Positions 30,268 through 64,000 of a stretch of 64,000 nt of DNA are shown piece by piece; position 1 is the first letter of the stretch, and each line of letters begins with the position of its first letter. A model generated the notes under the pieces. The model made no database searches and was not told where the DNA came from. It saw only the letters and a list, made by a program, of their open reading frames with translations. The DNA lies in contig CAYNJY010000002.1 of NCBI GenBank assembly GCA_964397755.1, positions 15,620-79,619 of the forward strand, written 5' to 3'. Both the position numbers and the translations under genes were made by a program. Source of the DNA: an uncultured Gammaproteobacteria bacterium. Lineage in GTDB: Bacteria > Patescibacteriota > Microgenomatia > UBA10105 > UBA927.

Positions 30268-31017
30268 ATGAAAGGAGTCGTTCTTGCTGGAGGGGTTGCT
30301 ACCCGACTGAGACCTCTGACGCTTGTCACCAACAAGCATCTTCTTCCTGTCTACAATAAACCGATGATTTTCTATCCAATGGAAACAATGCAGAAAGTCG
30401 GAATCAAAGAGGTCCTCCTTACGACAGCGGGTGACCATGTCGGAGATTTCGCGAATTTACTCAAGTCCGGAGAGGATTTCAACCTACGTCTTTACTATGC
30501 GATCCAGCAGAATCCAACCGGCGGTATTGCCGACGCGCTGGCGCTGGCCGAAGAGTTCGCGCGAAATGAACCTATTCTGGTCATTTTGGGCGACAACATT
30601 TTCAACTTTGACCTCAAAGCTTCCCTTGCCAAATTTGAAACGCAGATACAAAACAGCGGCAAGGGAGCGATGGTTTTTGGCGTCCATCGCAACACCGAGG
30701 CTCGGCAATACGGAGTAATAGATATGGATAGTAAAGGGAGAGTCCTGTCGATCGAAGAGAAGCCGGAAACGCCAAAATCCGATATCGCGCAAACCGGTAT
30801 ATATGTGTACGACAGACGGCCGTTTGAGTTCATCCGCCGGCTTAAACCGTCAGCACGAGGTCAACTCGAAGTGACGGATCTGAACAATATGTACCTCGAA
30901 GAAGGAACACTTCTATGCGAAGTGATCGATTGGTGGGTGGACGCAGGCACATCCCATGACGAGCTTCTCCGGGCCAACGTTCAGGTAGCGGAATTCGTCA
31001 AACAAGGGAAACTATAG
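30268..31017 (+). CDS. rmlA: Glucose-1-phosphate thymidylyltransferase-like sugar nucleotidyltransferase (short form)
   Basis: Has the GXGTRL motif (LAGGVATRLRPLT). rmlB follows directly. Confidence 0.7.
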   Translation: MKGVVLAGGVATRLRPLTLVTNKHLLPVYNKPMIFYPMETMQKVGIKEVLLTTAGDHVGDFANLLKSGEDFNLRLYYAIQQNPTGGIADALALAEEFARNEPILVILGDNIFNFDLKASLAKFETQIQNSGKGAMVFGVHRNTEARQYGVIDMDSKGRVLSIEEKPETPKSDIAQTGIYVYDRRPFEFIRRLKPSARGQLEVTDLNNMYLEEGTLLCEVIDWWVDAGTSHDELLRANVQVAEFVKQGKL

Positions 31018-32034
31018 ATGAGACTCCTCGTGACCGGCGGCGCCGGCTTCATCGGTTCGAATTTTGTCCTCTACTGGATGGCGCATCATCCAGGTGATGA
31101 CATTGTGAATCTTGATGCGCTTACGTACGCAGGGAATCTCGAAAACTTGATTTCTGTTGCCGAGAACCCGCGGTATCGGTTTACCAAGGCTGATATTTGT
31201 GATGCGAAGGGTGTGGCGGCGGCAATGGCGGGCGTTGATATCGTCGTACATTTTGCGGCAGAAACCCACGTTGATCGATCAATCCTTGAACCGGCCCCGT
31301 TTATCATGACGAATGTTATTGGGACACAGATTCTTCTTGAGCAGGCGTTGAAAGCAAAGGTCAAACGATTTCATCACATCTCGACAGACGAGGTGTTCGG
31401 GTCGCTCGAACTTGATGATTTGAATAAATTTAGTGAACGAACATCTTACGATCCCAGAAGTCCATATTCAGCAAGTAAAGCAGCTTCAGATCACCTTGTA
31501 CGAGCGTTCTACCATACGTACGGTTTGCCGGTTACCATAACCAACTGTTCAAACAACTACGGTCCGTATCAGTTCCCTGAGAAGCTTATACCCCTTACTA
31601 TCACCAATATTCTTGAAGGCAAAAAGGTTCCCGTCTATGGTGACGGCTTGCATGTCCGCGACTGGCTCTACGTTGAGGATCACTCGAGGGCAATAGAGTT
31701 GGTGCTTGAGAAAGGCAAGGTCGGCGAAACCTACTGTGTCGGCGGACTTAGAAAGGACCTGAATAATAGTACGATTATCAGAAAAATTTTCTCACTCATG
31801 GGGGCGGATGAATCGGTGGTAGAGTACGTGAAGGATAGGCCTGGTCATGACCGCCGCTACGCTATCGACTGGACGAAAATTAAAAGCGAACTCGGGTGGG
31901 TGCCTCAGCATGACTTCGATACGTGGCTTGCCAAAACCATTGATTGGTACCGGGCCAACCAGTCTTGGTGGAGGAGAGTCAAAAGCGGTGAGTATCAAAA
32001 ATATTATCGTCAACAGTACCAAGGCGCATCATGA
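31018..32034 (+). CDS. rmlB: dTDP-glucose 4,6-dehydratase
   Basis: TGGAGFIGSNF plus YxxxK in an extended SDR; 338 aa. Confidence 0.85.
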   Translation: MRLLVTGGAGFIGSNFVLYWMAHHPGDDIVNLDALTYAGNLENLISVAENPRYRFTKADICDAKGVAAAMAGVDIVVHFAAETHVDRSILEPAPFIMTNVIGTQILLEQALKAKVKRFHHISTDEVFGSLELDDLNKFSERTSYDPRSPYSASKAASDHLVRAFYHTYGLPVTITNCSNNYGPYQFPEKLIPLTITNILEGKKVPVYGDGLHVRDWLYVEDHSRAIELVLEKGKVGETYCVGGLRKDLNNSTIIRKIFSLMGADESVVEYVKDRPGHDRRYAIDWTKIKSELGWVPQHDFDTWLAKTIDWYRANQSWWRRVKSGEYQKYYRQQYQGAS

Positions 32035-32921
32035 TGAACATACTCGGAACGGGCTTGTCTGGGCTAATCGGCTCAAGGGTGGTGGAGCTTCTTTCGTCAG
32101 AGGTTAATTTTAACAATATTAGTCTAGAGACTGGCGTTGATATCACCGATTATCTCGCGGTTGAAAAACACCTCAAGCAAAATGATGGCAGGTGGGTGTG
32201 GCATTTTGCCGCCGCAACTGATGTCGCAGCCGCCGAAAAAGAGCGGAGCCAAGCTCAAGAGTCGGTTTCGTGGAAAGTCAATGTTGAAGCCACGAGAAAC
32301 ATTGCCCAGATTTGCCAACAGCTGGGCAAACATCTGTTGTATCTGTCGACTGATTATGTTTTTAGAGGAACGCAGGAGTTTTATACCGAGAGAGAAGAGC
32401 CTAATCCTGAGGGTTGGTATGCCACAACGAAATACGAAGGCGAAAAAATCGTCTTAGCGCTTGGCGAGTTGGGACTGGTCGTGCGACTTTCCAACCCCTA
32501 TCGCGCCAATCCAGTTGGCAAGCGGGATTTTGTCCACAAAATGATGGATAGGTTCGCCTCAGGCCAACCAATTGCAGCGCCTTCTGATTCTCGCTTTAAT
32601 CCTACCTTTGTTGACGATTTGACTTATGTGCTCAAAACTTTGGTTGAAACCAACGCTTCTGGAGTTTATCATGCGGGTGGCGGTGGGGGTTTGTCGCAGT
32701 ATGAGGCGGCTATGGCTATCTGCGACACCTTCGGTTATAAGCGAGAATTAGTGAGCCCGACAACGTTTGTGCAATTTATCGAGGGACGAGCGCCATTTCC
32801 TAAGTTGGCGATACTCGCCAATGGCAAAATTGAAAAATTGGGACTCAGGATGCGCACCTTCTCTGAAGGTCTGGTCGAAGTGAAACGGCAGGAAAAGAGA
32901 ATAGCCCAAAGTCTGGCCTGA
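32031..32921 (+). CDS. rmlD: dTDP-4-dehydro-6-deoxyhexose reductase (RmlD-like)
   Basis: An RmlD-like substrate-binding SDR, coupled to rmlB. Confidence 0.65.
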   Translation: MMNILGTGLSGLIGSRVVELLSSEVNFNNISLETGVDITDYLAVEKHLKQNDGRWVWHFAAATDVAAAEKERSQAQESVSWKVNVEATRNIAQICQQLGKHLLYLSTDYVFRGTQEFYTEREEPNPEGWYATTKYEGEKIVLALGELGLVVRLSNPYRANPVGKRDFVHKMMDRFASGQPIAAPSDSRFNPTFVDDLTYVLKTLVETNASGVYHAGGGGGLSQYEAAMAICDTFGYKRELVSPTTFVQFIEGRAPFPKLAILANGKIEKLGLRMRTFSEGLVEVKRQEKRIAQSLA

Positions 32922-32954
32922 AGTTGTCCTTTCCGTTATAATGGGGGAAACCTG

Positions 32955-32981
32955 GGACGCGGGAGCGCGTCCATACTTTTT
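32955..32981 (+). terminator. GC-rich hairpin (GGACGCG/CGCGTCC, GGAG loop) followed by T5, between rmlD and ugd
   Basis: The hairpin is at 32955-32972, and the U-tract ends 3 nt before the ugd ATG. Confidence 0.35.
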
Positions 32982-32983
32982 CT

Positions 32984-34282
32984 ATGACGATTGCCTTTGT
33001 TGGACACGGCTATGTGGGACTGGTGACGGCGGCGGTCTTTGCGGATTTAGGGAACACCGTCTGGGTGGTGGGGAGGACAAAGGAAAAAATTGAAAAGCTC
33101 AAGAAAGGGACGGTCCCGTTTTATGAGCCAGGACTCGCCGAATTAGTGAAACGCAACGTCGAGGCGAGACGGTTACTCTTTACGCTCGATTACGGCGAGG
33201 CAGTCCCGCCGTCGAGTATTATTTTTATTTGCGTTGGAACGCCCTCGAAAGACAACGGGGAGGCAGATTTGGGGAGTGTGTTTGACGCGGCAGGAAAGAT
33301 AGGGAAAAGCATGGTCGGCTATAAAGTTGTTGCCACCAAGAGCACGGTTCCTCCAGGGACAAATAAGAAGATAGTCGAAATTATAATGAAGGCGAAGCCC
33401 GAAGGGTCCTCCTTTGCGATTGCGTCCGTCCCTGAATTTTTGCGGGAAGGTAGCGCAATCGCAGACACGCTCCGCCCGGATCGGGTGGTCATCGGTACCA
33501 CCTCCGATCGGGCCGAGGCCATGCTTCTGGAGCTTCATACATCCATCGACGGCAAGGTGGTCTTGTGCAACGTCGAGACTGCGGAGCTTATCAAATACGC
33601 TTCCAATGCTCTGCTCTCTACCAAGATATCTTTTGCGAACGCCGTCTCTTTTCTGTCTGAGAAAGTCGGTGCCGATGTTGAGAAAGTGCTCGAAGGGGTG
33701 GGTCTTGACCGTCGTATCGGCCGGAGTTTTCTTTTCCCCGGCGTCGGCTACGGCGGGAGCTGCTTCCCCAAAGATGTGAAGGCACTTATATCGATCGCAG
33801 CAGAGTATGGGTACGCGTTTAACTTACTGAAAGCTGTCGATGAAATAAATCGTCAAGCAGTGCTTAACTTTGTTGATAAAATCACTCGACACTTTCATGG
33901 GAAGGTTACGGGCCAAAAAATTGCGGTGCTCGGTCTCTCATTTAAGCCGAACACGGATGATATGCGTGAAGCCCCATCGATCGGAATTATTACCGAGCTT
34001 GTCAAACGTGGGGCGCTGATTAAAGCCTATGATCCTGTGGCTATGAACAATGCAAAGCAGGTATTGCCGAAAGGAGTCATATATGCCAGGGATGCTTACC
34101 AGGCAGCCGCAGGGGTGGACGCAGTAGCGGTCGTTACCGAGTGGAACGAGTTTCTTCAGCTTGACCTCGTACGTCTTGCAAAAAGGATGAAGAGTTTGGT
34201 ATTGTTTGATGGTCGAAACATATATGATCCTGCCCGAGCCAAACAACTAGGTTTTTTGTACTACGGTATCGGGCGAATGTAA
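32984..34282 (+). CDS. ugd: UDP-glucose 6-dehydrogenase family
   Basis: An N-terminal GxGxxG (VGHGYVGL), a catalytic Cys region (GGSCFPKD), and 432 aa. Confidence 0.85.
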   Translation: MTIAFVGHGYVGLVTAAVFADLGNTVWVVGRTKEKIEKLKKGTVPFYEPGLAELVKRNVEARRLLFTLDYGEAVPPSSIIFICVGTPSKDNGEADLGSVFDAAGKIGKSMVGYKVVATKSTVPPGTNKKIVEIIMKAKPEGSSFAIASVPEFLREGSAIADTLRPDRVVIGTTSDRAEAMLLELHTSIDGKVVLCNVETAELIKYASNALLSTKISFANAVSFLSEKVGADVEKVLEGVGLDRRIGRSFLFPGVGYGGSCFPKDVKALISIAAEYGYAFNLLKAVDEINRQAVLNFVDKITRHFHGKVTGQKIAVLGLSFKPNTDDMREAPSIGIITELVKRGALIKAYDPVAMNNAKQVLPKGVIYARDAYQAAAGVDAVAVVTEWNEFLQLDLVRLAKRMKSLVLFDGRNIYDPARAKQLGFLYYGIGRM

Positions 34283-34293: not shown

Positions 34294-35253
34294 ATGGCTG
34301 CCAAAAGAGCATTTATCACTGGAATCGCAGGATTTGCAGGAAGTCACCTCGCGGAGCACCTCCTCTCAAGGGGATTTGATGTGTACGGGCTCTGTCGGCC
34401 GAGAAGTAAAACAGACAATATCGAAACAATAAAAGCTAAACTTCATTTAGAAGATGCGGATCTTCTTGACTCCCACAGCCTCTACACGACAATAGCACGG
34501 ATAAAGCCACAGTATATCTTTCACTTGGCTGCTCAGTCGTTTGTGCCCACATCGTGGGGATCTCCGTCTGTGACGCTAGAGGTAAACATTGTGGGATCTG
34601 CGAATATTTTTGAGGCAGTTCGGCAGGTTGGGATTGATCCAGTGATCCAAATAGCGTGTTCCTCAGAAGAGTACGGACTCGCGCAACCAAACGAAATGCC
34701 AATTAAGGAGACAAATCCGTTGCGTCCGCTTTCGCCGTACGCAGTCTCGAAGGTGGCAATGGACTATCTTGGGTATCAGTATTATCAATCATATAGAATG
34801 AGGATCGTTCGCACACGGGGATTTAATCACACAGGGCCGCGACGTGGCGAGACGTTTGCGGAATCAAACTTTGCAAAGCAGATAGCGCTTATCGAAAAAG
34901 GGAAACAAGAGCCAGTTATCTCCGTTGGCAATCTTGACGCGGCGCGTGATTATACCGACGTTCGGGATATGGTGCGAGCATACCTTTTGGCAGTTGAGAA
35001 GTGCGATCCGGGTGATGTGTATAACATCTGTACGGGAACATCCATTCGCATTGGCGACATGCTGAAACTGTTGCTTTCTTTTAGTAAAGTTAAAGCGGAG
35101 ATTAGGACCGACCCTTCCAGGATGCGGCCATCAGACGTACCGATTCTCATCGGCGACAATACGAAGTTTGTAAAAAGGACCGGATGGAAGCTTGAGATTC
35201 CTTTCAATAAAACAATGGAAGACCTTCTCAACTACTGGCGGCAGCGTGTGTAA
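34294..35253 (+). CDS. NAD-dependent epimerase/dehydratase (extended SDR; GDP-mannose-4,6-dehydratase / Rmd / UXS-like)
   Basis: An ITGIAGFAGSHL N-terminus and 319 aa. Confidence 0.65.
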   Translation: MAAKRAFITGIAGFAGSHLAEHLLSRGFDVYGLCRPRSKTDNIETIKAKLHLEDADLLDSHSLYTTIARIKPQYIFHLAAQSFVPTSWGSPSVTLEVNIVGSANIFEAVRQVGIDPVIQIACSSEEYGLAQPNEMPIKETNPLRPLSPYAVSKVAMDYLGYQYYQSYRMRIVRTRGFNHTGPRRGETFAESNFAKQIALIEKGKQEPVISVGNLDAARDYTDVRDMVRAYLLAVEKCDPGDVYNICTGTSIRIGDMLKLLLSFSKVKAEIRTDPSRMRPSDVPILIGDNTKFVKRTGWKLEIPFNKTMEDLLNYWRQRV

Positions 35254-35262: not shown

Positions 35263-36372
35263 ATGAAAGTCGTCGTCGTCGTTCCCACCTATAACGAGCG
35301 GGAAAGCATACAGGACCTTCTGAACGGTCTTAAAAAGGCAGCCTCAAGAATTACCGGTCATACGCTGTCGTACCTTATTGTAGATGATACATCGCCAGAC
35401 GGAACGGGGTCAGTTGTTGCTTCCTACCAGAAATCACATACAGACGTCTATCTTCTCAGCGGGAAAAAGCAAGGGCTTGGGCGAGCACTGCTTCGTGGTA
35501 TGCTCTATGCGATAGATCATCTGGGAGCAGATATCGTCGTTCAGATGGATGCGGATTTATCACACGACCCAGCAGTATTACCGGAGTTCATCCGGAGAAT
35601 CGATCGGGGAGCGAATTTCGCTGTCGGCAGTCGCTACATACCAGGCGGGTCGATACCGGGAAACTGGGCCCCGCATAGAAAGCTATTTAGTGTCATCGGA
35701 AACGCTGTCGTGCGTTTTGGCTTAGGATTTTCTCATATCCACGATTGGACGGGAGGCTACCGTGCCTATCATAAACAGTTTGTTTTGGGATCGAAGGATG
35801 AGCTCGGGAAATATAGCGGTTATGTTTTTCAGATCGCCTTTCTCCACAAGTCCATCAAACTAGGCGCACATATTGTCGAGGTACCCATTCATTTTACCGA
35901 TCGGCGTTTTGGTCACTCAAAGATCGCTCCTTCCCAGTATGTCCGCGATGTTCTCCTGTATGTTTTTCGTTCGCGGTGGGAGCAAACGGTTGGTGGGCCG
36001 TCTGGAAAATTTTTAGTCGTTGGCACCATCGGGCTTATGATTAATACTGCGGTTCTGGAACTACTGGTGGCGCTCGGGTTGCATCCGGCAGGAGGGTCGG
36101 CGATTGGCGCAGAATGTGCGATAGTGAGTAATTTCTTTCTCAACAACCGCTGGACGTTTGTGCACCGGCGCATCACCGGCGGCAGAACAGTGAGGAAATT
36201 TTTCCAGTTTAACGTAGCCTCTCTTGGTGCTATGGTGATTCAGGCAGGCACGGTATGGCTCGGTACGATGGCAGCGGGTATCCAGGCGTATCGGCTATTT
36301 TACCTCTTAGGCGTTGGCTTTGGCCTTATCTGGAACTATACAATGTACTCGAGGGTGATTTGGAAGAAATAA
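35263..36372 (+). CDS. GT2 polyprenol-phosphate sugar synthase (DPM1/GtrB-like) fused to a C-terminal GtrA-like 4-TM domain
   Basis: A VVVVPTYNERESI GT2 N-terminus with DAD and a C-terminal GtrA-like membrane domain. Confidence 0.75.
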   Translation: MKVVVVVPTYNERESIQDLLNGLKKAASRITGHTLSYLIVDDTSPDGTGSVVASYQKSHTDVYLLSGKKQGLGRALLRGMLYAIDHLGADIVVQMDADLSHDPAVLPEFIRRIDRGANFAVGSRYIPGGSIPGNWAPHRKLFSVIGNAVVRFGLGFSHIHDWTGGYRAYHKQFVLGSKDELGKYSGYVFQIAFLHKSIKLGAHIVEVPIHFTDRRFGHSKIAPSQYVRDVLLYVFRSRWEQTVGGPSGKFLVVGTIGLMINTAVLELLVALGLHPAGGSAIGAECAIVSNFFLNNRWTFVHRRITGGRTVRKFFQFNVASLGAMVIQAGTVWLGTMAAGIQAYRLFYLLGVGFGLIWNYTMYSRVIWKK

Positions 36373-36379: not shown

Positions 36380-37978
36380 ATGAATAGCCTAAAAAAATCT
36401 GTACAACGCTCTCTTCCGGCTGTTATGTTGCTGCTGATTCTATGTATTGGTGCATACCTGCGCCTATTTCGAATTTCCGAGTACTTGACGTTTTTGGGAG
36501 ATGAGGGTCGAGACGCCTTGGTGGTGAAGCGAATGCTGGTTGAGAAAAAGTTTACGCTTCTGGGTCCCACCGCCTCAGTTGGCGGGTTCTTTTTAGGACC
36601 TATCTATTACTATTTTATGATGCCGTTCTTGGCTTTGTGGCGTTTGGATCCGACCGGGCCGGCTGTCATGGTGGCATTGTCTGGAGTTGCCACAATATAT
36701 TTGGTTTGGAGACTAGGGTCTGAATTATTTTCCCCTCTAACAGGGATGATTGCCGCAAGCTTATACGCTTTTTCTCCTCTGGTGATTGCCTATTCGCGCC
36801 ACTCTTGGAATCCCAATCTTGTTCCGTTTTTTGCCACCCTTCTCATTTTTTTCCTGTGGAAGTGGTCGAAGGACGGTCGGCTGGTTAGCGCTTTTTGGGC
36901 GGGCGTAGTCGTGGGAGTCGGTTTGCAGCTTCACTACCTTTTTTTATTTTTAGTTCCGATCTCATTGATCTGGGCAATGCTCAACTGTCGGGGAGGACGC
37001 CGCAGAGCCCAAATTATAGGAGTCGGTCTCGTGGGGTTTTTATGCGGATACGCGCCTTTTCTGGCCTTTGAAATCCGCCATAACTTTCCTAATACCCAGT
37101 CGATCATTCGCTTTCTCCTAAAAGGGGAAGAGACCGGTTGGAGTGCCAAAATTTTTCAGCAGAACATTTCCGATGTAGTGTTTAGACTCTTTGGCCGGTT
37201 GGTGCTGAGACTGCCTCCCCGAGAACAATGGGAACTTAAACCCGTTTGGCAAATGATTTCGTGGATTGTCGCGACCAGGCTGGCCATTTTGACGAGTCTA
37301 CTTTTTATCATCGGAGAGATGTTTCGCTTCGTGCCAACGCGAGTGTTTCGGTTGCTTGAGGGCCGACACCCCCAGTTGTCTCAGAGAGCGTTCGTGCTAC
37401 TGTTCCTTTGGTTTGCCGTGCCGGTCGTTCTTTTCGGATTTTATCAGCGCGGCATTTACGACTATTATCTGGGTGTTATGTTTGCGGTTCCTTTTTTGGC
37501 AGTCGCTTTGATTTTGACCGTGTTGTGGCATATAGGTCCGACTAAATGGTTGGCTGTGGCTGTTTGGATAGGCTTGGTTTTCCTCAACTGGCAGGGAAGA
37601 CCTTTTCGGTACCCTCCTAATAATCAGCTTGCCCAAGCCAAAAGGATTGCGGCCGAGGCGCTCGCCAAAACCGAGGGTAAGCCCTTCAATTTTGCTCTGA
37701 TTACTTCTTTAAATTCTGATCACGCGTACCGGTACTTCTTTGAGATTTGGGGTAATCCTCCGGTGACGATCGAAAACGAGACGGTAGATCCGGAACGCAA
37801 GACGGTCTCCGGTCAGCTTATCATTATCTGCGAAACTGTGGCTTGTAAGCCACTTGGGCACCCATTGTGGGAGATTGCGGGGTTTGGCAGGGCGCAGATT
37901 AGCGGAGAGTGGGATGTGCCGTTTGTCAAGATATTCAAGCTTGTCCACTACGCGGCAGACCAAAAGGAGAGGATATGA
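36380..37978 (+). CDS. GT-C glycosyltransferase, family 39/83 (ArnT/PMT-like)
   Basis: A polytopic protein with LGDEGRD in the first extracytoplasmic loop, the PMT/ArnT catalytic loop. Confidence 0.65.
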   Translation: MNSLKKSVQRSLPAVMLLLILCIGAYLRLFRISEYLTFLGDEGRDALVVKRMLVEKKFTLLGPTASVGGFFLGPIYYYFMMPFLALWRLDPTGPAVMVALSGVATIYLVWRLGSELFSPLTGMIAASLYAFSPLVIAYSRHSWNPNLVPFFATLLIFFLWKWSKDGRLVSAFWAGVVVGVGLQLHYLFLFLVPISLIWAMLNCRGGRRRAQIIGVGLVGFLCGYAPFLAFEIRHNFPNTQSIIRFLLKGEETGWSAKIFQQNISDVVFRLFGRLVLRLPPREQWELKPVWQMISWIVATRLAILTSLLFIIGEMFRFVPTRVFRLLEGRHPQLSQRAFVLLFLWFAVPVVLFGFYQRGIYDYYLGVMFAVPFLAVALILTVLWHIGPTKWLAVAVWIGLVFLNWQGRPFRYPPNNQLAQAKRIAAEALAKTEGKPFNFALITSLNSDHAYRYFFEIWGNPPVTIENETVDPERKTVSGQLIIICETVACKPLGHPLWEIAGFGRAQISGEWDVPFVKIFKLVHYAADQKERI

Positions 37979-54976: not shown

Positions 54977-55002
54977 CGTGATACGCTCGAACGCGTTTTT
55001 GT

Positions 55003-56798: not shown

Positions 56799-59295
56799 TC
56801 GAATGGTGCCGGTTTTGTTTTTTATCCTTACCGCTCTCTTCTTCCGCAGCTACTTTTTGAAGAACCAGGTACCACTTCCATTTAATCTGTTAGTTTCCTT
56901 CTACGCCCCATGGAGATACGAGACGTGGGCTGGCTACGGCGCTGGTGTGCCAAACAAACCTCTTGGCTACGATAACCTGAAGCTCTTCTATCCATACAGA
57001 AAATTTACGACAGAGGAGTTGAGTAGAGGCAAGATGCCACTTTGGAACCCGTATGTTTTTGCTGGCAACGTACATCATGCGACGTATCAATCAGCAGTTT
57101 TTTATCCGCTCAATGTCATCTATCATGTTCTCCCCCTTGTTGACGCGTGGAGCCTTATGGTCATGATACAGCCTGTGCTTGCCGGATGGTTCACGTATCT
57201 GTTCTTGCGTTCGCTCAATCGTTCCCAGGGAGCAAGCTGGCTTGGAGCGCTCGGGTTTGCCTATTCGGGGTGGATGATAGCCATGTGGGAGGAAGTGCTG
57301 GTTATCGTTCACACTATTCTGTGGCTCCCCCTTGCTCTCTATGCATCCAATTTGATTTGGATGAGGAACCAAACATTCAAAGGGATAGCCGTGTTGATTT
57401 TTGCTCTTTCTCTGGCAGTTTTTGCTGGATTTCCGCAGATGACCGTATACTTCTTCGGAATCGTCATCGCATGGAATATATACCACGTACTCTCTTCGTC
57501 TGTCACGGAAGAGCGGCGTAAAAAATTCGTGGCGATGATTTTCGCAGTCGCGTCGACGGTACTCCTGACGGCCGTCCAGTGGGTTCCCGCATCTGAAGCG
57601 TATGTTCTCGCTCCTCGAGCAAAAGTCGATTCCTCTTTCCTATTCAACAAATTTTTTTCTCCACTAACACATCTCCTGACCTTTCTCGCCCCTGATTTTT
57701 GGGGCAGTCCGGGGACGTATAATTATTTTGCAAACGCCATTTATATTCAGGAGCGAACACTATTTGTGGGTCTTGTAATTTTCCTTTTTGCCTTTTTTGC
57801 GTTTGTAAAGGATAAAGAACGTACCGCAGTTTTTTGGAAGGCCAGCACACTCCTAACACTCTCACTTGGTTTCGCCTTTCCAACGAGCTGGGTGTGGCAT
57901 ATATTTCGTGTCCCGGTGTTATCTGTCGCACAGCCTCTTCGGATACTTATACTCCCGGTTTTTGGCCTGTGTGTTCTTGCGTCGTACGGCATCGATACGT
58001 TCCAGAAGGAGCGATCTTTGAACGTAATGCGCCGGATACTACAAATCGTTGTCATTATATTTGTGGGTCTATGGATCTTTACGTTCGCCTCATATGTCCT
58101 CCATGTGCAGCAAGCGTCAATGATAAAAGCTTGCAATACGCCCATGCTCCATCGATGGTACTGCAGCTGGTTTACCGACCCCGATGTTCAAAAGCGCATT
58201 GCCCTCTATGGGGCGGTGTCGATTCGAAATCTCGTTATTCCCACAATAACACTACTTGTGATGATCGGTGTTGTTGTGTATTTGAGACGACAACCCTTCT
58301 GGTTCATCACGGGTCTCTCTGTGATTACACTGGGATCTAGTATGTATTTTGCACAGAAAATGCTGTATTTTTCCGATAGACAATTTGAATATCCTCTCGT
58401 TAGTCCGGTAAATAAACTCAAAGAACTTGCCGGTTATGACAGGGTATGGAGTTATGGCGACGGTTATATCGTTCGAAATATTCTTTCCTACTATCGTATT
58501 TTTTCAGCCGAAGGATATGAGGCTCTCTACGCTCATCGCTACGGAGTCTTGTTACATACGATTCAAAATAGTGGCAGAGTGAGCGACCGCATTCAGAGGA
58601 ACGATGCGACCTTGAGCGAGACCGGTCAGTTTGAGCGAATGACCCACAATCCGATACGGCTTCGGTTGATGTCGCTTCTGGGAGTTAAGTATGTTTTGGA
58701 ACACACAGATCCACACGCGGATCAGACATTGGCGCCACTCGAGCGATTTCCTCCTGATTTGTTTACTCTTGCCTGGGAAAATGATATATGGCGCATATGG
58801 GAATACAAACGTTCCCTTCCTCGCGCTTTTGTTGTTCACACAATAGTAGTAGAGAAAGATCCGCAAAAAATTGTAGACATACTCATTGATGAAAATACAG
58901 ACCTTCTAACCACCGCAATCGTTGAAGATGAAAAGATTACACTTTCTCAGATAGAAAGTGCCTCTGTGGATACTGTTGAAATCGTTGACTATCAACCCAC
59001 ATCGCTAGACATACGGGTGAACATAAGCGCAGATGGACTCCTCTTTTTGTCTGACACATACTATCCGGGGTGGAAGGCCTTTGTCGATGATATTGAGGCA
59101 AGGATTTATCGGACCAACTACACATTTCGCGGAGTTTTGGTGCCCAAAGGAAGTCATACGGTTCGGTTTGTCTACCAACCGCAATCATTTACAATGGGAG
59201 TGTCAGCGAGCATTATTGGAGTAATAATGTTTTTAGGACTTATTATATACGCTCGCCGGAATTTAGCTTCGCAAGGGGGCCCCTTGCGAAGCTAA
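56776..59295 (+). CDS. YfhO-family GT-C membrane glycosyltransferase (copy 3, 839 aa)
   Basis: YPYRK...GKMPLWNPYVFAGNVHHATYQSAVFYPLN at the N-terminus and YYPGWKAFVDD...VPKGSHTV at the C-terminus. Confidence 0.75.
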   Translation: MKARTWFDRMVPVLFFILTALFFRSYFLKNQVPLPFNLLVSFYAPWRYETWAGYGAGVPNKPLGYDNLKLFYPYRKFTTEELSRGKMPLWNPYVFAGNVHHATYQSAVFYPLNVIYHVLPLVDAWSLMVMIQPVLAGWFTYLFLRSLNRSQGASWLGALGFAYSGWMIAMWEEVLVIVHTILWLPLALYASNLIWMRNQTFKGIAVLIFALSLAVFAGFPQMTVYFFGIVIAWNIYHVLSSSVTEERRKKFVAMIFAVASTVLLTAVQWVPASEAYVLAPRAKVDSSFLFNKFFSPLTHLLTFLAPDFWGSPGTYNYFANAIYIQERTLFVGLVIFLFAFFAFVKDKERTAVFWKASTLLTLSLGFAFPTSWVWHIFRVPVLSVAQPLRILILPVFGLCVLASYGIDTFQKERSLNVMRRILQIVVIIFVGLWIFTFASYVLHVQQASMIKACNTPMLHRWYCSWFTDPDVQKRIALYGAVSIRNLVIPTITLLVMIGVVVYLRRQPFWFITGLSVITLGSSMYFAQKMLYFSDRQFEYPLVSPVNKLKELAGYDRVWSYGDGYIVRNILSYYRIFSAEGYEALYAHRYGVLLHTIQNSGRVSDRIQRNDATLSETGQFERMTHNPIRLRLMSLLGVKYVLEHTDPHADQTLAPLERFPPDLFTLAWENDIWRIWEYKRSLPRAFVVHTIVVEKDPQKIVDILIDENTDLLTTAIVEDEKITLSQIESASVDTVEIVDYQPTSLDIRVNISADGLLFLSDTYYPGWKAFVDDIEARIYRTNYTFRGVLVPKGSHTVRFVYQPQSFTMGVSASIIGVIMFLGLIIYARRNLASQGGPLRS

Positions 59296-59309
59296 CGCGG
59301 GATAAGCAT

Positions 59310-60950
59310 GTGAAAAATGCTTGGTTACTTGGTATCGTGGCGTTAGCACTTTTACTGCGAGTTTATCGTCTGGCTGAGGTTCCTGTCGGATTTCATGGCG
59401 ATGAAGCAAGCATCGGCTACAACGCGTACAGTCTCCTCAAAACCGGCAAAGATCAAAACAATAATGTTCTCCCCCTGGCCATCGATCAGTTCGGAGACTT
59501 TCGCCCTGCGGGGTACCACTATTTGACTATCCCGTTCGTTGCCGTCTTTGGACTTACGGAGCTGGCCGTGAGACTCCCTTCAGCTCTCCTCGGTGGACTC
59601 TCGGTTGTTCCGTTTGCTCTTCTTCTCTATCAACTGTTTAAGAGACAACAACTGGTGCTGCTTGGCGGACTTCTTCTTGCAATTTCCCCATGGCATATAG
59701 CGCTTTCAAGGGCAACATCGGAAAGCGTGGTTGCTCTTTTTTTGGTCCTTTGGGGTGCATATTTTTTTGTCCGCTTCGGTAAGAATCTGAAGAACCTTTG
59801 GTATGCCGGCTTCTTTTTCTTTTTGAGTTTCTTTTTTTACCACTCAGCTCGATTGTTTGTACCACTCCTCGTGTTGGTATATACCCTTTTGAGATTTTTT
59901 GAAGCCAAAAGTGATGTTCAGAAGCAAAAGCCACTTCTTTGGTTCACTGCCGGCATTGTCGTGGCCTCGGTGGTTATATTTTTTGTTTCATATGGGCGAG
60001 GTCGAGTAAGACAAGTGAGCATCTTGCGCTCCCCGGGAGACATGCAAACCCTGAGAGAGCAGGTTCTTGAAGATGTCGGTGTTGTCCCTTGGGCCGCGCG
60101 TGCACTTCATAATAAGGTGACACACTATCTCATAACCGTTGCTCGCAATTATTTTGAACACTTTACTGGAAATTTTCTTTTCCTCGAGGGGGGTCAACCA
60201 GTGCGCTACCGTGTGCCGTGGAGCGGACTCATGTACCTCATCGAGGCCCCCGCAGTCGCTATCGGCTTCATTGGTCTTATCGTATTTATTACTAGAACGA
60301 AAAACCAGTTAGGAGCGTTCCCTCTCTTGTGGCTCTTCCTGGCACCCATTCCAGCGGCATTGACCTTCGGTGAGCTTCCTAACGTGCAACGAGCCCTTTT
60401 TATGGTGCCATCGCTGGTACTTCTTTCTGCCTATAGCATAGTTCTTGTGGTTGATAAGACAGTAACAAGGCTCAGGACGTTCCTTGTGGTTGGTCTGATA
60501 CTTGCGTATGGATACGAGGGAGTAGTTTTTTTCCATAACTATTTTCACCATAGTTATACCCATGAGCCGTGGTATCGAAACGTTGGTGAAAAAGAATTGG
60601 TATTTGACGTAGCCCGATTTGCAGCGGAGGGAAAGAAGGTTGTTATGACATCACAAAATGACAACAATCTCGTCTTTCATCTCTTTTACACGCGCTTCGA
60701 CCCGGCAAAGTATCAGGCGCTTGGTTCACCGCGGGATAAAGATAACCTTCAGTTTGGCAACTTGACCTTTACCTACAGGCACTGTCCACTGGAGGGAAGC
60801 GAACAGGATGCGGCACTAGGGGAACTTGGTGTGATGTATGTCAATCGCGGAGAATGCAAACTTCCCAAAAACAGTGAACTCCTCAAAGACATCACGCGAC
60901 TCGACGATTCAATTGCCTTCCGCATTCTTCAAATCAAGCCTTCTCAATAA
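59310..60950 (+). CDS. GT-C glycosyltransferase, family 39-like (PMT_2)
   Basis: HGDEASIGYNAYSLLKTGKD is the DE loop. A polytopic protein of 546 aa. Confidence 0.65.
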   Translation: MKNAWLLGIVALALLLRVYRLAEVPVGFHGDEASIGYNAYSLLKTGKDQNNNVLPLAIDQFGDFRPAGYHYLTIPFVAVFGLTELAVRLPSALLGGLSVVPFALLLYQLFKRQQLVLLGGLLLAISPWHIALSRATSESVVALFLVLWGAYFFVRFGKNLKNLWYAGFFFFLSFFFYHSARLFVPLLVLVYTLLRFFEAKSDVQKQKPLLWFTAGIVVASVVIFFVSYGRGRVRQVSILRSPGDMQTLREQVLEDVGVVPWAARALHNKVTHYLITVARNYFEHFTGNFLFLEGGQPVRYRVPWSGLMYLIEAPAVAIGFIGLIVFITRTKNQLGAFPLLWLFLAPIPAALTFGELPNVQRALFMVPSLVLLSAYSIVLVVDKTVTRLRTFLVVGLILAYGYEGVVFFHNYFHHSYTHEPWYRNVGEKELVFDVARFAAEGKKVVMTSQNDNNLVFHLFYTRFDPAKYQALGSPRDKDNLQFGNLTFTYRHCPLEGSEQDAALGELGVMYVNRGECKLPKNSELLKDITRLDDSIAFRILQIKPSQ

Positions 60951-60957
60951 TCTTGCT

Positions 60958-62646
60958 TTATTGAGCTTGAACAACACGAAATACTACTGAATTATCCCCT
61001 CGCTTTATATTACTGAGAGCTCTGGTACCATCGGGTGTTGGACACGTTCCGTAATTGACATAGAGAATGTTTGGAAGGCCGGTTAATCCTTCAGTCTTGG
61101 GATCCACTCGCAGTGGGCATTCTTCTTGGGAAAATTCATACGAACCGAAGTTGATGCGGTCAAAATCAGGAATCTCGGGTTGGCGGGTATCTTTTTGAAA
61201 CAAACCGGGATCGTAGCGGCCATAGAAGAGGAAGAAGATGGTGGGTGCGGATTCCCGATTGGTGACGACGGCTTTTTGATAGGAAGGAAGAAGTTCATTT
61301 ACTTCAGAAACAAGCGCCTGATACCCTTCGTGTCGATACCACGGTTTATGGATCGGGAGATGAACGAAGTATTGGTGGAGGTAAAAAGAAACATTGTAGC
61401 TAGCAAACAGTAATAAAGAGATAATGAAAAACTTCTTTGTTGAAGTTGACCACATAAGACTAAGGAGCCACAGTACGCCAAGGGCTGTTACCATGGAAAA
61501 TGCAGGTAACATGAGGACTGTCCTTTGAAGATTTGGAACGTCATCGAACGCGAGACTACTTCCAATAGGAGCAAGGAAAATCCAAGACAGGAGAATGAAT
61601 CCTCCTTGACCGCCCTTGGATATAAGCCAATAAAGTCCAGCAAGAAGCAGTGGTAATTCAAAGAGGTAGAGAAGCCCGCTACCAGTGACTCGATAACGGG
61701 CTGGTAAGGCTTGATCGGTGAAGAGAAACGGATATGAGAAATGAGAAAAGTAGTTTTGGGAAAATTGATCAGCATATCCAATGAGCTTATTGTGATAGAG
61801 CCTTGTTACAAATCGATTGGATCCGGCAACGCCATTTTCACGAATATATTCATCGAGATTGAGTTGGGTTTTTTGATCTGCAAAAAGACTGACCGTACGG
61901 AGTCGCAGTGAAAGGTTGGGTGTTGAGAGAACTACCATAAGGGGCAAGAGGATTGTAAGAAAATAGAGAATGATGGGGAGCTTAAGATTGCGCCAGATTC
62001 CCGAAATTGGAGTAGCTTTAATTCCGGGAATCGAAGTGGGGTAAACAAGCATCAAGATCGGAATAAACAGCGGCAGAAATGCACGCGGGGCTTGGTAGAG
62101 CAAGAGGGCGAGGGCAAAGGAAGCGAATGAGGCAAGAAGTAGCCATAGGGTGGAGCTCTTCGTCCATTTCATATACAAAAGTATTCCAAGACAAAGGAAA
62201 AACGTGACAACAACGTTTTCCGTTGCTGTGCGCGAGAGATTGATGTGCCATGGACTAATAGCTAAAAAGAGAGATGAAAGAAGCGAGATGTAAGATGTAA
62301 GACGAGATGATTTGAATAATTCTTGTACCAGGAAAAATAGAACAAGAATGGTTAATGTTCCAAAGAATGCAGAAGGGAATCGTACAGAAAAGATACTAAG
62401 GTCAAAAAGGGCAATTGATGGAATAGCAAAATAGGAGTATCCTGCTGGGCTGTAGATAAAAGACTTAAGGTGGAGCGGCAGTAAGTTGCCGCTCATATCC
62501 CGACCGGTTTTGAGGATTGAGTATGCGTTATATCCCAAAAACGCCTCATCGCGGTGAAGTCCAGCTGGAATCTCACCAAGCTTAGAAAAGCGAAGAAATC
62601 CTGCGATTATTAGAATCAAAAACAATATCAGTTTTGCTTGTTTCAT
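60958..62646 (-). CDS. GT-C glycosyltransferase, family 39-like (PMT_2), convergent paralog of 59310..60950
   Basis: HRDEAFLGYNAYSILKTGRD. The overall architecture is colinear with the neighbouring gene. Confidence 0.65.
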   Translation of the reverse strand: MKQAKLILFLILIIAGFLRFSKLGEIPAGLHRDEAFLGYNAYSILKTGRDMSGNLLPLHLKSFIYSPAGYSYFAIPSIALFDLSIFSVRFPSAFFGTLTILVLFFLVQELFKSSRLTSYISLLSSLFLAISPWHINLSRTATENVVVTFFLCLGILLYMKWTKSSTLWLLLASFASFALALLLYQAPRAFLPLFIPILMLVYPTSIPGIKATPISGIWRNLKLPIILYFLTILLPLMVVLSTPNLSLRLRTVSLFADQKTQLNLDEYIRENGVAGSNRFVTRLYHNKLIGYADQFSQNYFSHFSYPFLFTDQALPARYRVTGSGLLYLFELPLLLAGLYWLISKGGQGGFILLSWIFLAPIGSSLAFDDVPNLQRTVLMLPAFSMVTALGVLWLLSLMWSTSTKKFFIISLLLFASYNVSFYLHQYFVHLPIHKPWYRHEGYQALVSEVNELLPSYQKAVVTNRESAPTIFFLFYGRYDPGLFQKDTRQPEIPDFDRINFGSYEFSQEECPLRVDPKTEGLTGLPNILYVNYGTCPTPDGTRALSNIKRGDNSVVFRVVQAQ

Positions 62647-62650
62647 TTAA

Positions 62651-62996
62651 TTAGAGAATGCCAAGTTCAACAAGTTTTTCTCTAAGTTTTTCAGGAGATT
62701 CAAAAAGAATTGTTGTTATGTCCATTTGTCTAGCCGGTATTAAGGAAGATTCCTTATCATCGATAAAAATAGTTTCTTTTGGAAGAACCTTAGCCCTTTC
62801 TAATGCAAACGAATATATTTTGCGATTTGGCTTTCTGACTCTCACCTCGTGAGAGAAAATGCCCCTTTGAAACCAAAGTAAAAAACCAAATCGCTCATCC
62901 AACTTCTCGACTCTTTCTCGAACATTGTCCGCTAAACTTTTTCGTTCCATTAGTAAACAAGACGCCGCCGAGATCAAAGAGAATAGCTTTCATCAT
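62651..62996 (-). pseudogene. HAD-superfamily hydrolase disrupted by a frameshift at an A5 homopolymer
   Basis: Motif I (MMKAILFDLGGVLF) is read from the ATG at 62996 in one frame and terminates after about 33 codons. The rest (KPNRKIY...FIDDK, motifs III/IV) continues in the +1 frame, with the junction at acgAAAAAg. Confidence 0.55.
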
Positions 62997-63003
62997 GGTT
63001 TGA

Positions 63004-64000
63004 TTATAAACTCCTGTATCGAAAAAATAGGAATATCACTACTGTTAATGAAAGAGTGCTTACAACATTAGAGAAGAACCTAATGGGGGATTCGGTGAAG
63101 CGAACGGCGATCTCGTGAGTTCCTTGTGGAACTTGAAAGGTAATAAGTCCTCGGTGGTTGGCATCCTGGAATTGGATGGGGACTTTCTGGTTGTTTACGC
63201 GCGCCTGCCAGCCAGGAAAGTAGAACGTGTTGTCAAGAATTGTGGCCTGTGTCTTGGCAACGATTCTGTATATATGGCGTACGGTGTTTCGTTCCCGCTC
63301 CTCGATGGTTGCGTCACCGCTTATGATCTGGGCAGGGGACGGAGCTCCTTTCGACGGGTTTCCGGCGGACCATACTGTTGTTGCCGCTCCGTGATAGTCA
63401 GTGGTACCGGCATACGTTTCGTAGAAACTGTCGGGGTGGTCGGTGAAACCGGCAACACGAGCATATGAAAATGAGACAATGATAAGGAGTATGGCTACCA
63501 GCACGGGAATGTTTTTGTGTTTGGTAGAGTTGAGAAAAAAAGTAGACACAGTGCTCGTAGCGAAACTCGCAATGGCGACGAAGCGCCACGGAAATTGGAT
63601 TTTCTTAAGAAGCGGCAGCGCTTCCCAGATAATTGAGCTGATAGGAAGCATGATCGCTATGCTTGCGCCGAAAGTAATAAGCCAAAAAATAACAAAGTTT
63701 CTATTTTGGGGCCTCTTCTTAAGGAGCAAAAAGCCTCCGAGGGCCAGGAGAAAGTGGAGCATTCCAATCTGAGGAGAAAGTCCTCCTGATTTTGTGATGT
63801 CCGGTCCGAGTCCCCATGGGCTTACAAGAAGTTGCTCAAGTTTTGGAAAGTGATTTCGATACATAGAGCCAATAAAGATATCGCCGTGGGTGTAGCGTTG
63901 TTCGAGGATTGCTGGGATCCAGAAGTATGAAGCAAGCCCAAGACCAAGAACAAGTAGGCTACATGCCCGAAGAATCTGTCTCGCGTCATGACGAGCGGTG
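63004..64000 (-). CDS. YfhO-family-like GT-C membrane protein, partial (N-terminus beyond the window edge)
   Basis: The frame stays open upstream of the annotated Met to the window end. It carries the C-terminal FYFPGWQARVNN...VPQGTHEI motif. Confidence 0.5.
   Translation of the reverse strand, partial: TARHDARQILRACSLLVLGLGLASYFWIPAILEQRYTHGDIFIGSMYRNHFPKLEQLLVSPWGLGPDITKSGGLSPQIGMLHFLLALGGFLLLKKRPQNRNFVIFWLITFGASIAIMLPISSIIWEALPLLKKIQFPWRFVAIASFATSTVSTFFLNSTKHKNIPVLVAILLIIVSFSYARVAGFTDHPDSFYETYAGTTDYHGAATTVWSAGNPSKGAPSPAQIISGDATIEERERNTVRHIYRIVAKTQATILDNTFYFPGWQARVNNQKVPIQFQDANHRGLITFQVPQGTHEIAVRFTESPIRFFSNVVSTLSLTVVIFLFFRYRSL

Follow-up and report, generated by a model that had tools for sequence, protein, structure and literature searches.

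Results

Organization of the locus

What would a bacterium with a reduced genome do with a long series of membrane-embedded glycosyltransferases encoded side by side, and how did it come by them? The question is raised by a 64,000-nucleotide stretch of DNA (positions 15,620 to 79,619 of contig CAYNJY010000002.1, assembly GCA_964397755.1; hereafter the window), in which Pfam, NCBIfam, and PDB scans delineate a densely packed glycosylation locus at positions 30268–64000. Judged by its protein relatives, the organism is a Microgenomates (Gottesmanbacteria-like) bacterium of the candidate phyla radiation (CPR). The best matches of the long YfhO, GT87-like, and short YfhO proteins of the locus all belong to Patescibacteria, and the named ones come from Gottesmanbacteria, which are part of the Microgenomates group, from Woesebacteria, and from Microgenomates. 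We consider it probable that the cluster is ancient, vertically inherited, and characteristic of Microgenomates, and that it encodes an expanded, multicomponent transmembrane glycosylation system for an envelope glycan.

Bases 1–30 kb of the window hold housekeeping genes, as judged from the list of open reading frames (ORFs) and from Pfam. From 30268 to 60950, the plus strand carries an uninterrupted run of 24 genes (starts refined) with a largest gap of 69 nucleotides and many 4-nucleotide ATGA overlaps at the junctions, and the last three genes of the window follow on the minus strand. A sequence-only reading of the window had described this region as a contiguous glycosylation island that lies mostly on one strand. 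The layout and the gene content that it listed along the region were recovered in the Pfam, NCBIfam, and PDB scans, with the corrections given below. The features of the locus are as follows (TM, transmembrane helix).

30268–31017, plus: RmlA-type glucose-1-phosphate nucleotidyltransferase (PF00483, 181 bits)
31018–32034, plus: RmlB-type NDP-hexose 4,6-dehydratase (PF16363/PF01370)
32031–32921, plus: RmlD-type dTDP-4-dehydrorhamnose reductase (PF04321, 186 bits; PDB 3sc6, E 7e-26)
32955–32972, plus: terminator-like GC-rich hairpin and T-run (GGACGCG-GGAG-CGCGTCC)
32984–34282, plus: UDP-glucose 6-dehydrogenase Ugd (three UDPG_MGDP_dh domains)
34294–35253, plus: Rmd-like short-chain dehydrogenase/reductase (SDR; GDP-6-deoxy-D-lyxo-4-hexulose reductase/GMD-like; PDB 2pk3, E 5.5e-85)
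35263–36372, plus: DPMS-type synthase, GT2 catalytic domain and GtrA-like 4-TM domain (PF00535 and PF04138)
36380–37978, plus: PMT2_a, GT-C of the PMT_2 type (PF13231, 39 bits; DE motif after TM1)
37975–38745, plus: GT2_b, polyprenyl-phosphate-sugar-synthase-like, no TM (PDB: GtrB 5ekp, DPMS, ArnC)
38742–39893, plus: GT-C candidate of the GT87/MptA_B type, class GT-C_B
39963–41483, plus: PMT2_b, GT-C of the PMT_2 type (PF13231, 47.6 bits; DE motif)
41480–43015, plus: Ys_a, short YfhO GT-C (YfhO C-terminal match, 32 bits; DD motif after TM1)
43012–44676, plus: Ys_b, short YfhO/PTPS_related GT-C (PF10131, 37.5 bits)
44654–45382, start approximate, plus: GT2_c, polyprenyl-phosphate-sugar-synthase-like (PDB)
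45379–46821, plus: Wzx/MOP-family flippase (PF13440, 174 bits; PF01943)
46818–47735, plus: GT2_d, cytoplasmic glycosyltransferase (Pfam, NCBIfam)
47748–48671, plus: GT2_e, cytoplasmic glycosyltransferase (weak rhamnosyltransferase/GlfT1-like matches)
48643–49422, start approximate, plus: GT2_f, cytoplasmic glycosyltransferase (Pfam, NCBIfam)
49437–51707, plus: YL_a, long YfhO GT-C (PF09586, 66 bits)
51688–52725, plus: GT4 (GT-B) glycosyltransferase (PF00534; gene call in L081)
52730–54976, plus: YL_b, long YfhO GT-C (PF09586, 95 bits)
55003–55914, plus: GT2_g, cytoplasmic glycosyltransferase (Pfam, NCBIfam)
55911–56798, plus: SAM-dependent methyltransferase with N-terminal CxxC...CxxC zinc ribbon (PF13489)
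56776–59295, plus: YL_c, long YfhO GT-C (PF09586, 96 bits)
59310–60950, plus: PMT_c, GT-C of the PMT_2/PMT type (Pfam; DE motif)
60958–62646, minus: PMT_d, GT-C of the PMT_2/PMT type (Pfam)
62651–63000, minus: HAD-family hydrolase, frameshifted (Pfam)
63004–64000, minus: Ys_c, short YfhO GT-C, C-terminal ~331 residues only (35 bits)

L081 is a Logan contig that spans approximately 50987–62673 of the window. The locus comprises 11 GT-C genes, four of the PMT_2 type, three long YfhO, three short YfhO/PTPS_related, and one GT87/MptA-like, which account for 56% of its bases. All of the roughly ten GT-C genes counted earlier are retained, and the total rises to 11 with the candidate at 38742–39893, which that count had missed. 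The remainder consists of three polyprenyl-phosphate-sugar synthases, the Wzx flippase, four other GT2 genes, one GT4 gene, the methyltransferase, and the sugar-supply genes. Two other tallies of the sequence-only reading came out lower: within 30268–64000 there are seven GT2 genes, not eight, and one GT4 gene, not two, the second, MshA-like one lying outside the locus at 16813–18027.

Conservation of gene order and composition of the locus

Related loci were collected by searching one genome per GTDB species with a profile of the long YfhO proteins, which returned more than 550 related stretches, and 77 loci were fetched. These come from Gottesman-, Levy-, Woese-, Curtiss-, Chisholm-, and Collierbacteria, plus evidently mislabelled bins. 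ORFs in these loci were labelled by their best BLAST match to the proteins of the window, and adjacency was scored in loci holding both genes. Each adjacency in the core order Ys_a-Ys_b-GT2-Wzx-GT2_d-GT2_e-GT2_f-YL_a-GT4-YL_b-GT2_g was found in between 21/26 and 38/38 loci; GT2_b and GT87 were adjacent in 12 of 15 loci, and GT87 and PMT2_b in nine of 12. The 3′ tail, with the methyltransferase, the third long YfhO, and paralogs resembling PMT_c and PMT_d, varies in copy number between genomes. Among loci of at least 20 kb, the median is seven GT-C ORFs; at least five are present in 39 of 41, and 58% of the bases belong to GT-C genes.

The long YfhO genes keep their identity as well as their position. 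The one located 5′ of GT4 is the ortholog of YL_a in all 23 loci scored, and the one located 3′ of GT4 is the ortholog of YL_b in 33 of 34. These orthologs are about 45% identical, whereas paralogs within a genome share 29–33% (33% for YL_a and YL_b). Since orthologs are closer to one another than YL_a is to YL_b, and positions are fixed, the YfhO paralogs predate the divergence of the lineages. Recent tandem duplication was rejected as the origin of the expansion, because paralog identity does not exceed 36% and the orthologs are positionally fixed.

Both edges of the cluster are visible in the nearest relative, Candidatus Gottesmanbacteria RIFCSPLOWO2_01_FULL_43_11b (MFJV01000001.1, 1.02 Mb). 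Its left edge reads Sua5/TsaB-CAP-small membrane ORF-RmlA-RmlB-RmlD-Ugd-SDR-DPMS-like-PMT_2-GT2-GT87, collinear with the window at 53–83% amino acid identity. Its 3′ part (locus L014) runs from Wzx through PMT_d to an intact HAD gene, a full-length short YfhO gene, and a further PMT gene; hence, the cluster of the window genome almost certainly extends past base 64000. A chimeric assembly at the junction between housekeeping genes and locus was rejected, as the junction is kept in loci L078–L080.

The same relative shows one local difference. At approximately 780.5–790.5 kb of MFJV01000001.1 (locus L079, 11200–21113), more than 10 kb of unrelated genes, encoding an SLT transglycosylase, Fic, HflX, a Type ISP restriction-modification enzyme, and EVE/NucS-like proteins, are inserted after the GT87 gene. 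This is an apparent mobile or defence insertion, and the window lacks it. On a complete 0.76-Mb Levyibacteriota chromosome (CP066685.1, 263179–285473; locus L023), Ham1-SerS-SecA lead directly into a long YfhO gene. A second locus on this chromosome (L004) has nine GT-C-like ORFs, and from the two loci together it follows that this 0.76-Mb genome encodes at least 11 GT-Cs. Public records give several cluster-bearing metagenome-assembled genomes the titles "uncultured Gammaproteobacteria" or "Pacearchaeota," which are probably taxonomy errors.

The sequence-only reading had noted that the region looked more AT-rich than the housekeeping half. There is such a shift, but it is slight: the GC content is 0.479 in the locus and 0.504 in the first 30 kb. 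The main source of the gap is the first codon position (0.540 versus 0.579; p = 2e-5), and the third position differs less (0.505 versus 0.528; p = 0.026). Relative synonymous codon usage (RSCU) in the locus correlates with that of the housekeeping half with r = 0.90, compared with 0.82 between the two halves of the housekeeping region itself. The window contains no tRNA gene, and Pfam scans of the window detected neither an integrase nor a transposase. The suggestion that this is accessory or horizontally acquired DNA is thus contradicted by the gene order kept in the 77 loci, by the boundary, where the Sua5-CAP-small ORF-rmlA junction is collinear with the relative, and by codon usage matching that of housekeeping genes. 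Based on synteny, boundary, and codon usage, and with no tRNA, integrase, or transposase, we regard the locus as ancient and vertically inherited.

The GT-C enzymes

All GT-C candidates retain an acidic motif (DE, DD, or D) just after TM1, in the first extracytoplasmic loop, and matches at the level of YfhO or PMT_2 were found in Pfam for most of the membrane proteins. Six proteins had been assigned to the YfhO family. Five of these exceed the gathering threshold of PF09586 (28.5 bits), the matches of Ys_a (32 bits) and Ys_c (35 bits) being confined to the C-terminal ~70 residues; the sixth, Ys_b, stays below the threshold with 19.4 bits and matches PTPS_related (PF10131) instead. Homology of the membrane domain extends to all six. 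Pairwise BLAST identities within each subgroup are 26–33%, Ys_a and Ys_b being 26% identical over their full length. The short and long proteins are nonetheless related, as a short-YfhO profile built from 22 sequences aligns with the long-YfhO profile (hhalign probability 99.5%, E 9e-23) over 351 columns that cover the whole membrane domain, with the invariant Asp of the two groups aligned (D32 of the protein at 43012 on D66 of the long family). A C-terminal signature said to be shared by all six is present in 6/6 only in the degenerate form [YF]-x-x-[GN]-W-x3-[VI]-[DN] ... V-x-x-G-x-H-x-[VI]; the exact Y/F-x-P-G-W occurs in only four, the protein at 49437 having YHDGW and YL_b having YDSNW.

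YL_c combines a 13-helix TM domain with an extracytoplasmic α/β domain, a β-sandwich domain, and a terminal TM helix. In the fold search, the closest structure to the long YfhO proteins was AftD; a sequence search of the PDB with the YfhO profile gave nothing useful. The reading frame of Ys_c is open to base 64000, and the gene continues beyond the window; full-length orthologs in L014 and L001 have 527–535 residues. A HMMER census with the long-YfhO profile, counted without taxonomy, gave 83,103 representative proteins at E ≤ 0.001 and 20,879 at E ≤ 1e-30, which shows only that the YfhO superfamily is very large. All name-bearing entries among the top 120 matches of the long YfhO are Patescibacteria, and by sequence similarity these proteins appear to form a separate CPR clade. 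In databases, the short YfhO orthologs bear the names "6-pyruvoyl-tetrahydropterin synthase-related protein" or "hypothetical," which are probably annotation errors.

The four PMT-like proteins all match PMT_2 (PF13231), have the size of ArnT (506–562 residues), and carry a D-E dipeptide immediately after TM1. PF02366 was matched weakly (27 bits) and only by the proteins at 59310 and 60958 (minus strand). The four had been called PMT/ArnT-like members of GT39. Membership of the PMT_2 superfamily stands; the GT39 label is not established, since Pfam gave no match to the MIR or PMT_4TMC domains in any of them, and the four may belong to either GT39 or GT83. A sequence search of the PDB with PMT_c gave nothing useful. 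PMT_c and PMT_d are 36% identical, and their genes are convergent with 7 nucleotides between the stops (60950–60958), which leaves no space for terminators.

The eleventh GT-C, encoded at 38742–39893, is a 383-residue protein with about seven TMs. Its homologs, at 55–75% identity, carry precomputed PF09594/PF26314 (GT87/MptA_B) assignments. The protein itself scores 38 bits against the MptA equivalog TIGR03459, with a cut-off of 439, and had no match at E ≤ 1e-3 in the Pfam scan and no significant match in a Foldseek fold search. We treat it as a candidate GT-C of the GT87/MptA-like type, which by homology would resemble PimE and MptA.

Synthases, flippase, and cytoplasmic enzymes

Three proteins resemble synthases of the DPM1/GtrB kind, as had been proposed. 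That assignment is supported by homology: their best solved relatives are DPMS, GtrB, and ArnC, and the leading NCBIfam families of GT2_b and GT2_c agree. The protein at 35263 aligns end to end with the structure of Pyrococcus furiosus DPMS (5mlz, E 7e-43), and the predicted fusion of GT2 to a GtrA domain is real, the latter matching PF04138 (GtrA_DPMS_TM). GT2_b, whose start was refined to ATG 37975 with AAGGAG upstream, and GT2_c are both about 250 residues long; PgfS is the best NCBIfam match of both, with dolichyl-phosphate hexose transferase, ArnC, and AglJ also among the leaders. GT2_c matches DPMS 5mlz (E 8e-21) across the entire catalytic domain, followed by ArnC and GtrB. The remaining four GT2 proteins (d, e, f, and g) do not show this DPMS/GtrB-like pattern. 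The Wzx flippase was confirmed through its match to PF13440.

The methyltransferase most likely begins at ATG 55911, which gives it the N terminus MKTCYLC...CSSC and agrees with the zinc ribbon read from its translation earlier. Among the sugar-supply genes, the protein that had been called an SDR epimerase is an SDR, but Rmd, rather than a generic epimerase, is its nearest relative, with every NCBIfam match below cut-off. Scans of the locus for promoters and terminators gave background-level results, except for the hairpin at 32955–32972. It sits in the 62-nucleotide gap between rmlD and ugd, and no other hairpin in the locus resembles a terminator convincingly. This hairpin is a possible terminator or attenuator and may divide rmlABD from the remaining genes.

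Discussion

A proposed pathway for an envelope glycan

The sequence-only reading had proposed a glycosylation machinery of the GtrA/GtrB/GT-C type, extracytoplasmic, lipid-carrier-dependent, and expanded several-fold. The relatives of the synthases and the acidic motifs of the GT-Cs support this idea, with GtrA or Wzx as the flippase, and the scheme that follows is built on the enzyme families, GT-C folds, conserved acidic motifs, and conserved synthase/GT-C gene adjacency described above. First, RmlA/B/D, Ugd, and the Rmd-like reductase, identified by homology, would supply activated 6-deoxyhexoses and UDP-glucuronate. Second, the four soluble GT2 enzymes, the GT4 enzyme, and the methyltransferase would build a lipid-linked oligosaccharide on the cytoplasmic face, which Wzx, the sole dedicated exporter encoded in the locus, would flip. 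Third, the three synthases, again identified by homology, would load polyprenyl phosphate with single sugars. Fourth, on the outer side of the membrane, the 11 GT-Cs of four families would use these charged lipids as donors to lengthen the glycan, branch it, or transfer it. Gene adjacency suggests that the DPMS-like synthase may work with PMT2_a, GT2_b with the GT87-like protein (and PMT2_b), and GT2_c and Wzx with Ys_a/Ys_b; the other YfhO and PMT paralogs would draw on shared donors. The product is probably a surface sugar coat. As candidate acceptors, a secondary cell-wall glycopolymer or a lipoglycan, Ser/Thr/Pro-rich membrane-anchored surface proteins, or both are the likeliest.

Several observations weigh against this interpretation. 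The 77 loci were chosen by the presence of a long YfhO gene and so are not a census of Microgenomates. No rmlC was found in the window, and the NCBIfam scores of all GT2 proteins fall far below the equivalog cut-offs. A crude motif scan of the cluster and of 1.29 Mb of related loci found no priming phosphoglycosyltransferase, Wzy, or ligase. Finally, by analogy with what is proposed for GacK, Wzx could flip a polyprenyl-phosphate monosaccharide instead, and if so the five soluble glycosyltransferases would be left without an obvious exporter. The search for primers used WecA/MraY and WbaP signatures and was negative in the window and the 77 loci; it was crude, and a primer could be encoded elsewhere in the genome. 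Of a canonical Wzx/Wzy pathway, in which a primer, a polymerase, and a chain-length regulator or ligase would be expected, only Wzx is present in the cluster. The recurrent unassigned ORFs in related loci are further GT-C-like proteins.

Candidate acceptors and alternative roles

Of three genes listed here from the left of the locus, two encode candidate acceptors.

26333–27364, plus: LTD-domain surface protein (Pfam LTD and translation; true start probably internal)
29126–30010, plus: CAP-domain membrane protein with a Ser/Thr/Pro-rich linker (Pfam CAP)
30007–30255, plus: small membrane ORF of 82 residues with two to three TMs, between CAP and rmlA

Both LTD and CAP have a Ser/Thr/Pro-rich linker adjoining a membrane anchor. 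In LTD, an imperfect 24-nucleotide tandem repeat (26975–27084) encodes a Thr/Pro (TPTPTP) linker of about 110 residues between the LTD domain and the C-terminal TM anchor, a classic candidate for O-glycosylation. The 82-residue ORF overlaps the CAP stop by 4 nucleotides and ends 12 nucleotides 5′ of rmlA. In the relative (L079), CAP has an ortholog at the equivalent position (55% identity), and the small ORF has one at the same position (53% identity; DUF5656, weak). CAP and LTD are absent from the 77 YfhO-anchored loci, most of which stop short of the 5′ boundary. LTD was rejected as a conserved neighbour, none having been seen in related loci. By analogy, the two are plausible acceptors, and only candidates.

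Tentatively, the main role of the system may be the synthesis of a secondary wall polysaccharide or a lipoglycan through successive GT-C reactions that take place for the most part outside the membrane, along the lines of mycobacterial lipomannan, lipoarabinomannan, and arabinogalactan (Ppm1, PimE, MptA/B, AftA-D, and Emb) or of streptococcal GacI/K/L. The similarity of the GT87-like protein to PimE and MptA and the AftD-like structure of the long YfhO proteins point this way, as does the proximity of Rml genes to GT2/Wzx/GT-C genes, which is also seen in rhamnose-polysaccharide clusters. Many anciently diverged, differentiated GT-C paralogs would suit a stepwise pathway. One related locus, moreover, contains a fusion of a PMT-like protein with a penicillin-binding protein (PBP) dimerisation domain. 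Against a glycopolymer, Wzx is the sole polymer exporter encoded, and motif scans revealed no LCP-type ligase, primer synthase, or phosphoglycosyltransferase.

It is also possible, if somewhat doubtful, that the main role is O-glycosylation of Ser/Thr/Pro-rich membrane-anchored proteins (LTD, CAP, pilins, or S-layer) by the PMT- and YfhO-like enzymes, as modelled on streptococcal GtrB/PgtC2 and PgfS/PgfM1 and on actinobacterial Ppm1/Pmt. The adjacency of the DPMS-like and PMT-like genes presumably mirrors Ppm1/Pmt. PgfS tops the NCBIfam matches of GT2_b and GT2_c, LTD has its TP-repeat linker before the TM anchor, and CAP, with its S/T/P linker, is coupled by the 4-nucleotide overlap to the ORF preceding rmlA, in a position kept in the relative. 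Precedent comes from streptococci, in which the YfhO-family proteins PgtC2 and PgfM1/M2 modify Ser/Thr-rich disordered regions of membrane proteins (PMC12041528). However, neither LTD nor CAP recurs in the related loci, five cytoplasmic glycosyltransferases, Wzx, and a methyltransferase exceed the needs of monosaccharide O-glycosylation, and the PMT-like proteins have neither MIR nor PMT_4TMC, the domains that mark true protein O-mannosyltransferases. Protein O-glycosylation and glycopolymer synthesis are roughly balanced as explanations, and both may hold.

A more far-reaching and rather unlikely idea is that the cluster represents a bacterial line of glycan assembly resembling that of the lumen of the endoplasmic reticulum or the archaeal Agl pathway. 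A DPM1/AglJ-like GT2 would start the glycan without a phosphoglycosyltransferase. The resulting polyprenyl-(mono)phosphate oligosaccharide would be extended by soluble GT2/GT4 enzymes and modified by the methyltransferase in the cytoplasm before being flipped by Wzx. GT-Cs that depend on polyprenyl-phosphate sugars (ALG3/PimE-like GT87, PMT_2, and YfhO) would then remodel the glycan outside in a fixed series, and a YfhO-type oligosaccharyltransferase would move it en bloc to Ser/Thr/Pro-rich surface proteins or the wall. If true, YfhO would be a third class of bacterial oligosaccharyltransferase, and the CPR cell surface, as well as attachment to hosts, would have this cluster as its core determinant.

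We consider it improbable that part of the GT-C expansion is noncatalytic, consisting of decaying paralogs or of scaffolds and acceptor-binding subunits. Small GT-Cs may need acceptor-binding partners, as speculated in PMC8035078, and the frameshifted HAD gene indicates some decay in the variable tail; yet all 11 GT-C ORFs are intact within the window, the loop-1 acidic motifs are kept in every family, and the core paralogs each have positional orthologs across lineages. Recent horizontal acquisition of an accessory island, for which the slightly lower overall and third-position GC, the drop to 0.442 in the last 3 kb, and the differing PMT copy number in the 3′ tail could be cited, is highly improbable given the order shared by 77 loci that represent six or more named candidate phyla within Microgenomates, the housekeeping boundary kept in another Gottesmanbacteria genome, the housekeeping-like RSCU, the lack of tRNA, integrase, and transposase noted above, and cross-lineage orthologs that are more alike than in-genome paralogs.

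Comparison with known systems

The pairing of adjacent GT-A and GT-C genes with a flippase, GtrA or Wzx, is an architecture known from characterised systems, exemplified by CsbB/GtcA/YfhO, GtlA/GtlB, and GacI/GacK/GacL (PMC8035078). In Bacillus subtilis, Staphylococcus aureus, and Listeria monocytogenes, CsbB/GtcA/YfhO and GtlA/GtlB serve teichoic acid glycosylation (PMC5836110, PMC8035078). Like CsbB/GtcA/YfhO, the present locus has a GT-A synthase, a flippase, a YfhO or PMT_2 GT-C, adjacent GT-A/GT-C genes, and the extracytoplasmic acidic motif. However, Firmicutes have one to three pairs scattered over 2–4 Mb, whereas here 11 GT-Cs and three synthases occupy one 34-kb block in which no teichoic acid genes are seen.

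The combination of YfhO-family GT-Cs with a GtrB/PgfS-like synthase is shared with streptococcal GtrB/PgtC2 and PgfS/PgfE/PgfM1/PgfM2 (PMC12041528). The streptococcal acceptors are Ser/Thr-rich disordered linkers, and the window has two such membrane-anchored proteins, LTD and CAP, nearby. The streptococcal systems, in contrast, use one or two GT-Cs to add a monosaccharide and do not include Wzx, Rml/Ugd, a methyltransferase, or a set of cytoplasmic glycosyltransferases. With the actinobacterial enzymes Ppm1/Pmt, PimE, MptA/MptB, AftA-D, and Emb, the locus would share serial GT-Cs acting outside the membrane and polyprenyl-phosphate donors, and both GT87 and PMT types are present. The actinobacterial genes, however, are dispersed or otherwise arranged, YfhO does not occur in these pathways, genome and envelope type differ, and no decaprenyl-phospho-arabinose genes are present here.

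The gacA-L cluster for the streptococcal group A carbohydrate and the Lactococcus Csd cluster likewise combine Rml, cytoplasmic GT2/GT4, a GtrB-like GT-A next to a Wzx-type flippase (GacI/GacK), and a PMT_2 GT-C (GacL). In these rhamnose-polysaccharide clusters an ABC transporter exports the rhamnan and a single GT-C serves each side chain, whereas no ABC exporter is found in the present cluster. Parallels with the archaeal Agl pathway (Haloferax AglJ/G/I/E/M/P/R/S/D/B) and the lumenal steps of eukaryotic ALG include a DPM1/AglJ-like GT2 and GT-Cs that depend on Dol-P-sugars, and the DPMS-like gene matches an archaeal DPMS over its full length. We take Ugd, the methyltransferase, and the Wzx-like flippase to be the counterparts of AglM, AglP, and AglR, respectively. 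A difference from Agl/ALG is that nothing here indicates N-glycosylation, and no homologue of STT3/AglB/PglB was found by sequence in the window.

Other features of the window

The housekeeping half encodes amino acid biosynthesis enzymes of the LysX/ArgC/LysZ/LysJ type, LysS, SerS, SecA, RNase HII, RuvABC, and RF2, as well as FtsEX with an EnvC-like protein, Sua5, and TsaB. At 602–4477, LysX (above the cut-off of TIGR02144), a semialdehyde dehydrogenase, an amino acid kinase, and an aminotransferase of the LysJ/ArgD type are encoded together as a lysine/arginine biosynthesis cluster of the LysW type, which is unusual for a CPR genome, as CPR bacteria are generally described as lacking amino acid biosynthesis. 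The MshA-like GT4 at 16813–18027 matches TIGR03449 with 303 bits, below the cut-off, and a KamA-family radical SAM aminomutase gene lies directly 5′ of it (15638–18027 for the pair), outside the locus. An Rfam scan of the window returned no match.

Within the locus, a perfect 16-nucleotide tandem duplication (AAGACACTAAGACGGT, 2.4 copies; 49397–49434) runs across the stop codon of GT2_f and reaches to 2 nucleotides before the ATG of the long YfhO gene at 49437; it looks like recent slippage that altered the 3′ end of GT2_f. The HAD gene has its N-terminal part (MMKAILFDLGGVLF...) in one frame and its C-terminal 108 residues in another. Its ortholog in L014 (18563–19159) is intact with 198 residues, and the copy in the window is either a pseudogene or a sequencing or assembly error. 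In a related Patescibacteria cluster (L070, 6796–8865), a PMT-like GT-C carries a C-terminal PBP dimerisation domain (PF03717, E 2e-13), which hints at a link to the peptidoglycan machinery.

Implications

Neither the component families nor the mechanism in general terms is new. The novelty lies in the scale, with three synthases and 11 GT-Cs of four families encoded in a single block, in the reduced CPR genome that harbors it, and in the strict order kept across a CPR class-level group. An open-access literature search on GT-C/YfhO and CPR terms found no description of the cluster, which may have been described elsewhere. If the genome were as large as the relative's scaffold, the locus, of at least 34 kb, would fill about 3% of it, a large investment, as that scaffold is only 1.02 Mb. 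The conservation also shows that a large, one-strand, slightly AT-rich glycosylation block need not be an island. For annotation, it implies that thousands of proteins named "6-pyruvoyl-tetrahydropterin synthase-related" or "hypothetical" are probable GT-C glycosyltransferases.

CPR/Patescibacteria account for much of bacterial diversity, an attached life on host cells is assumed for many of them, and their envelope chemistry is essentially uncharted. Glycoproteomics, probing with lectins or antibodies, and heterologous reconstitution could start from the defined gene set and the candidate acceptors that the locus provides. Its gene order has been held since before the split of Gottesman-, Levy-, and Woesebacteria, and the prediction is a complex, lineage-defining surface glycan, which, from the enzymes encoded, would contain 6-deoxyhexose and uronic acid and would be methylated.

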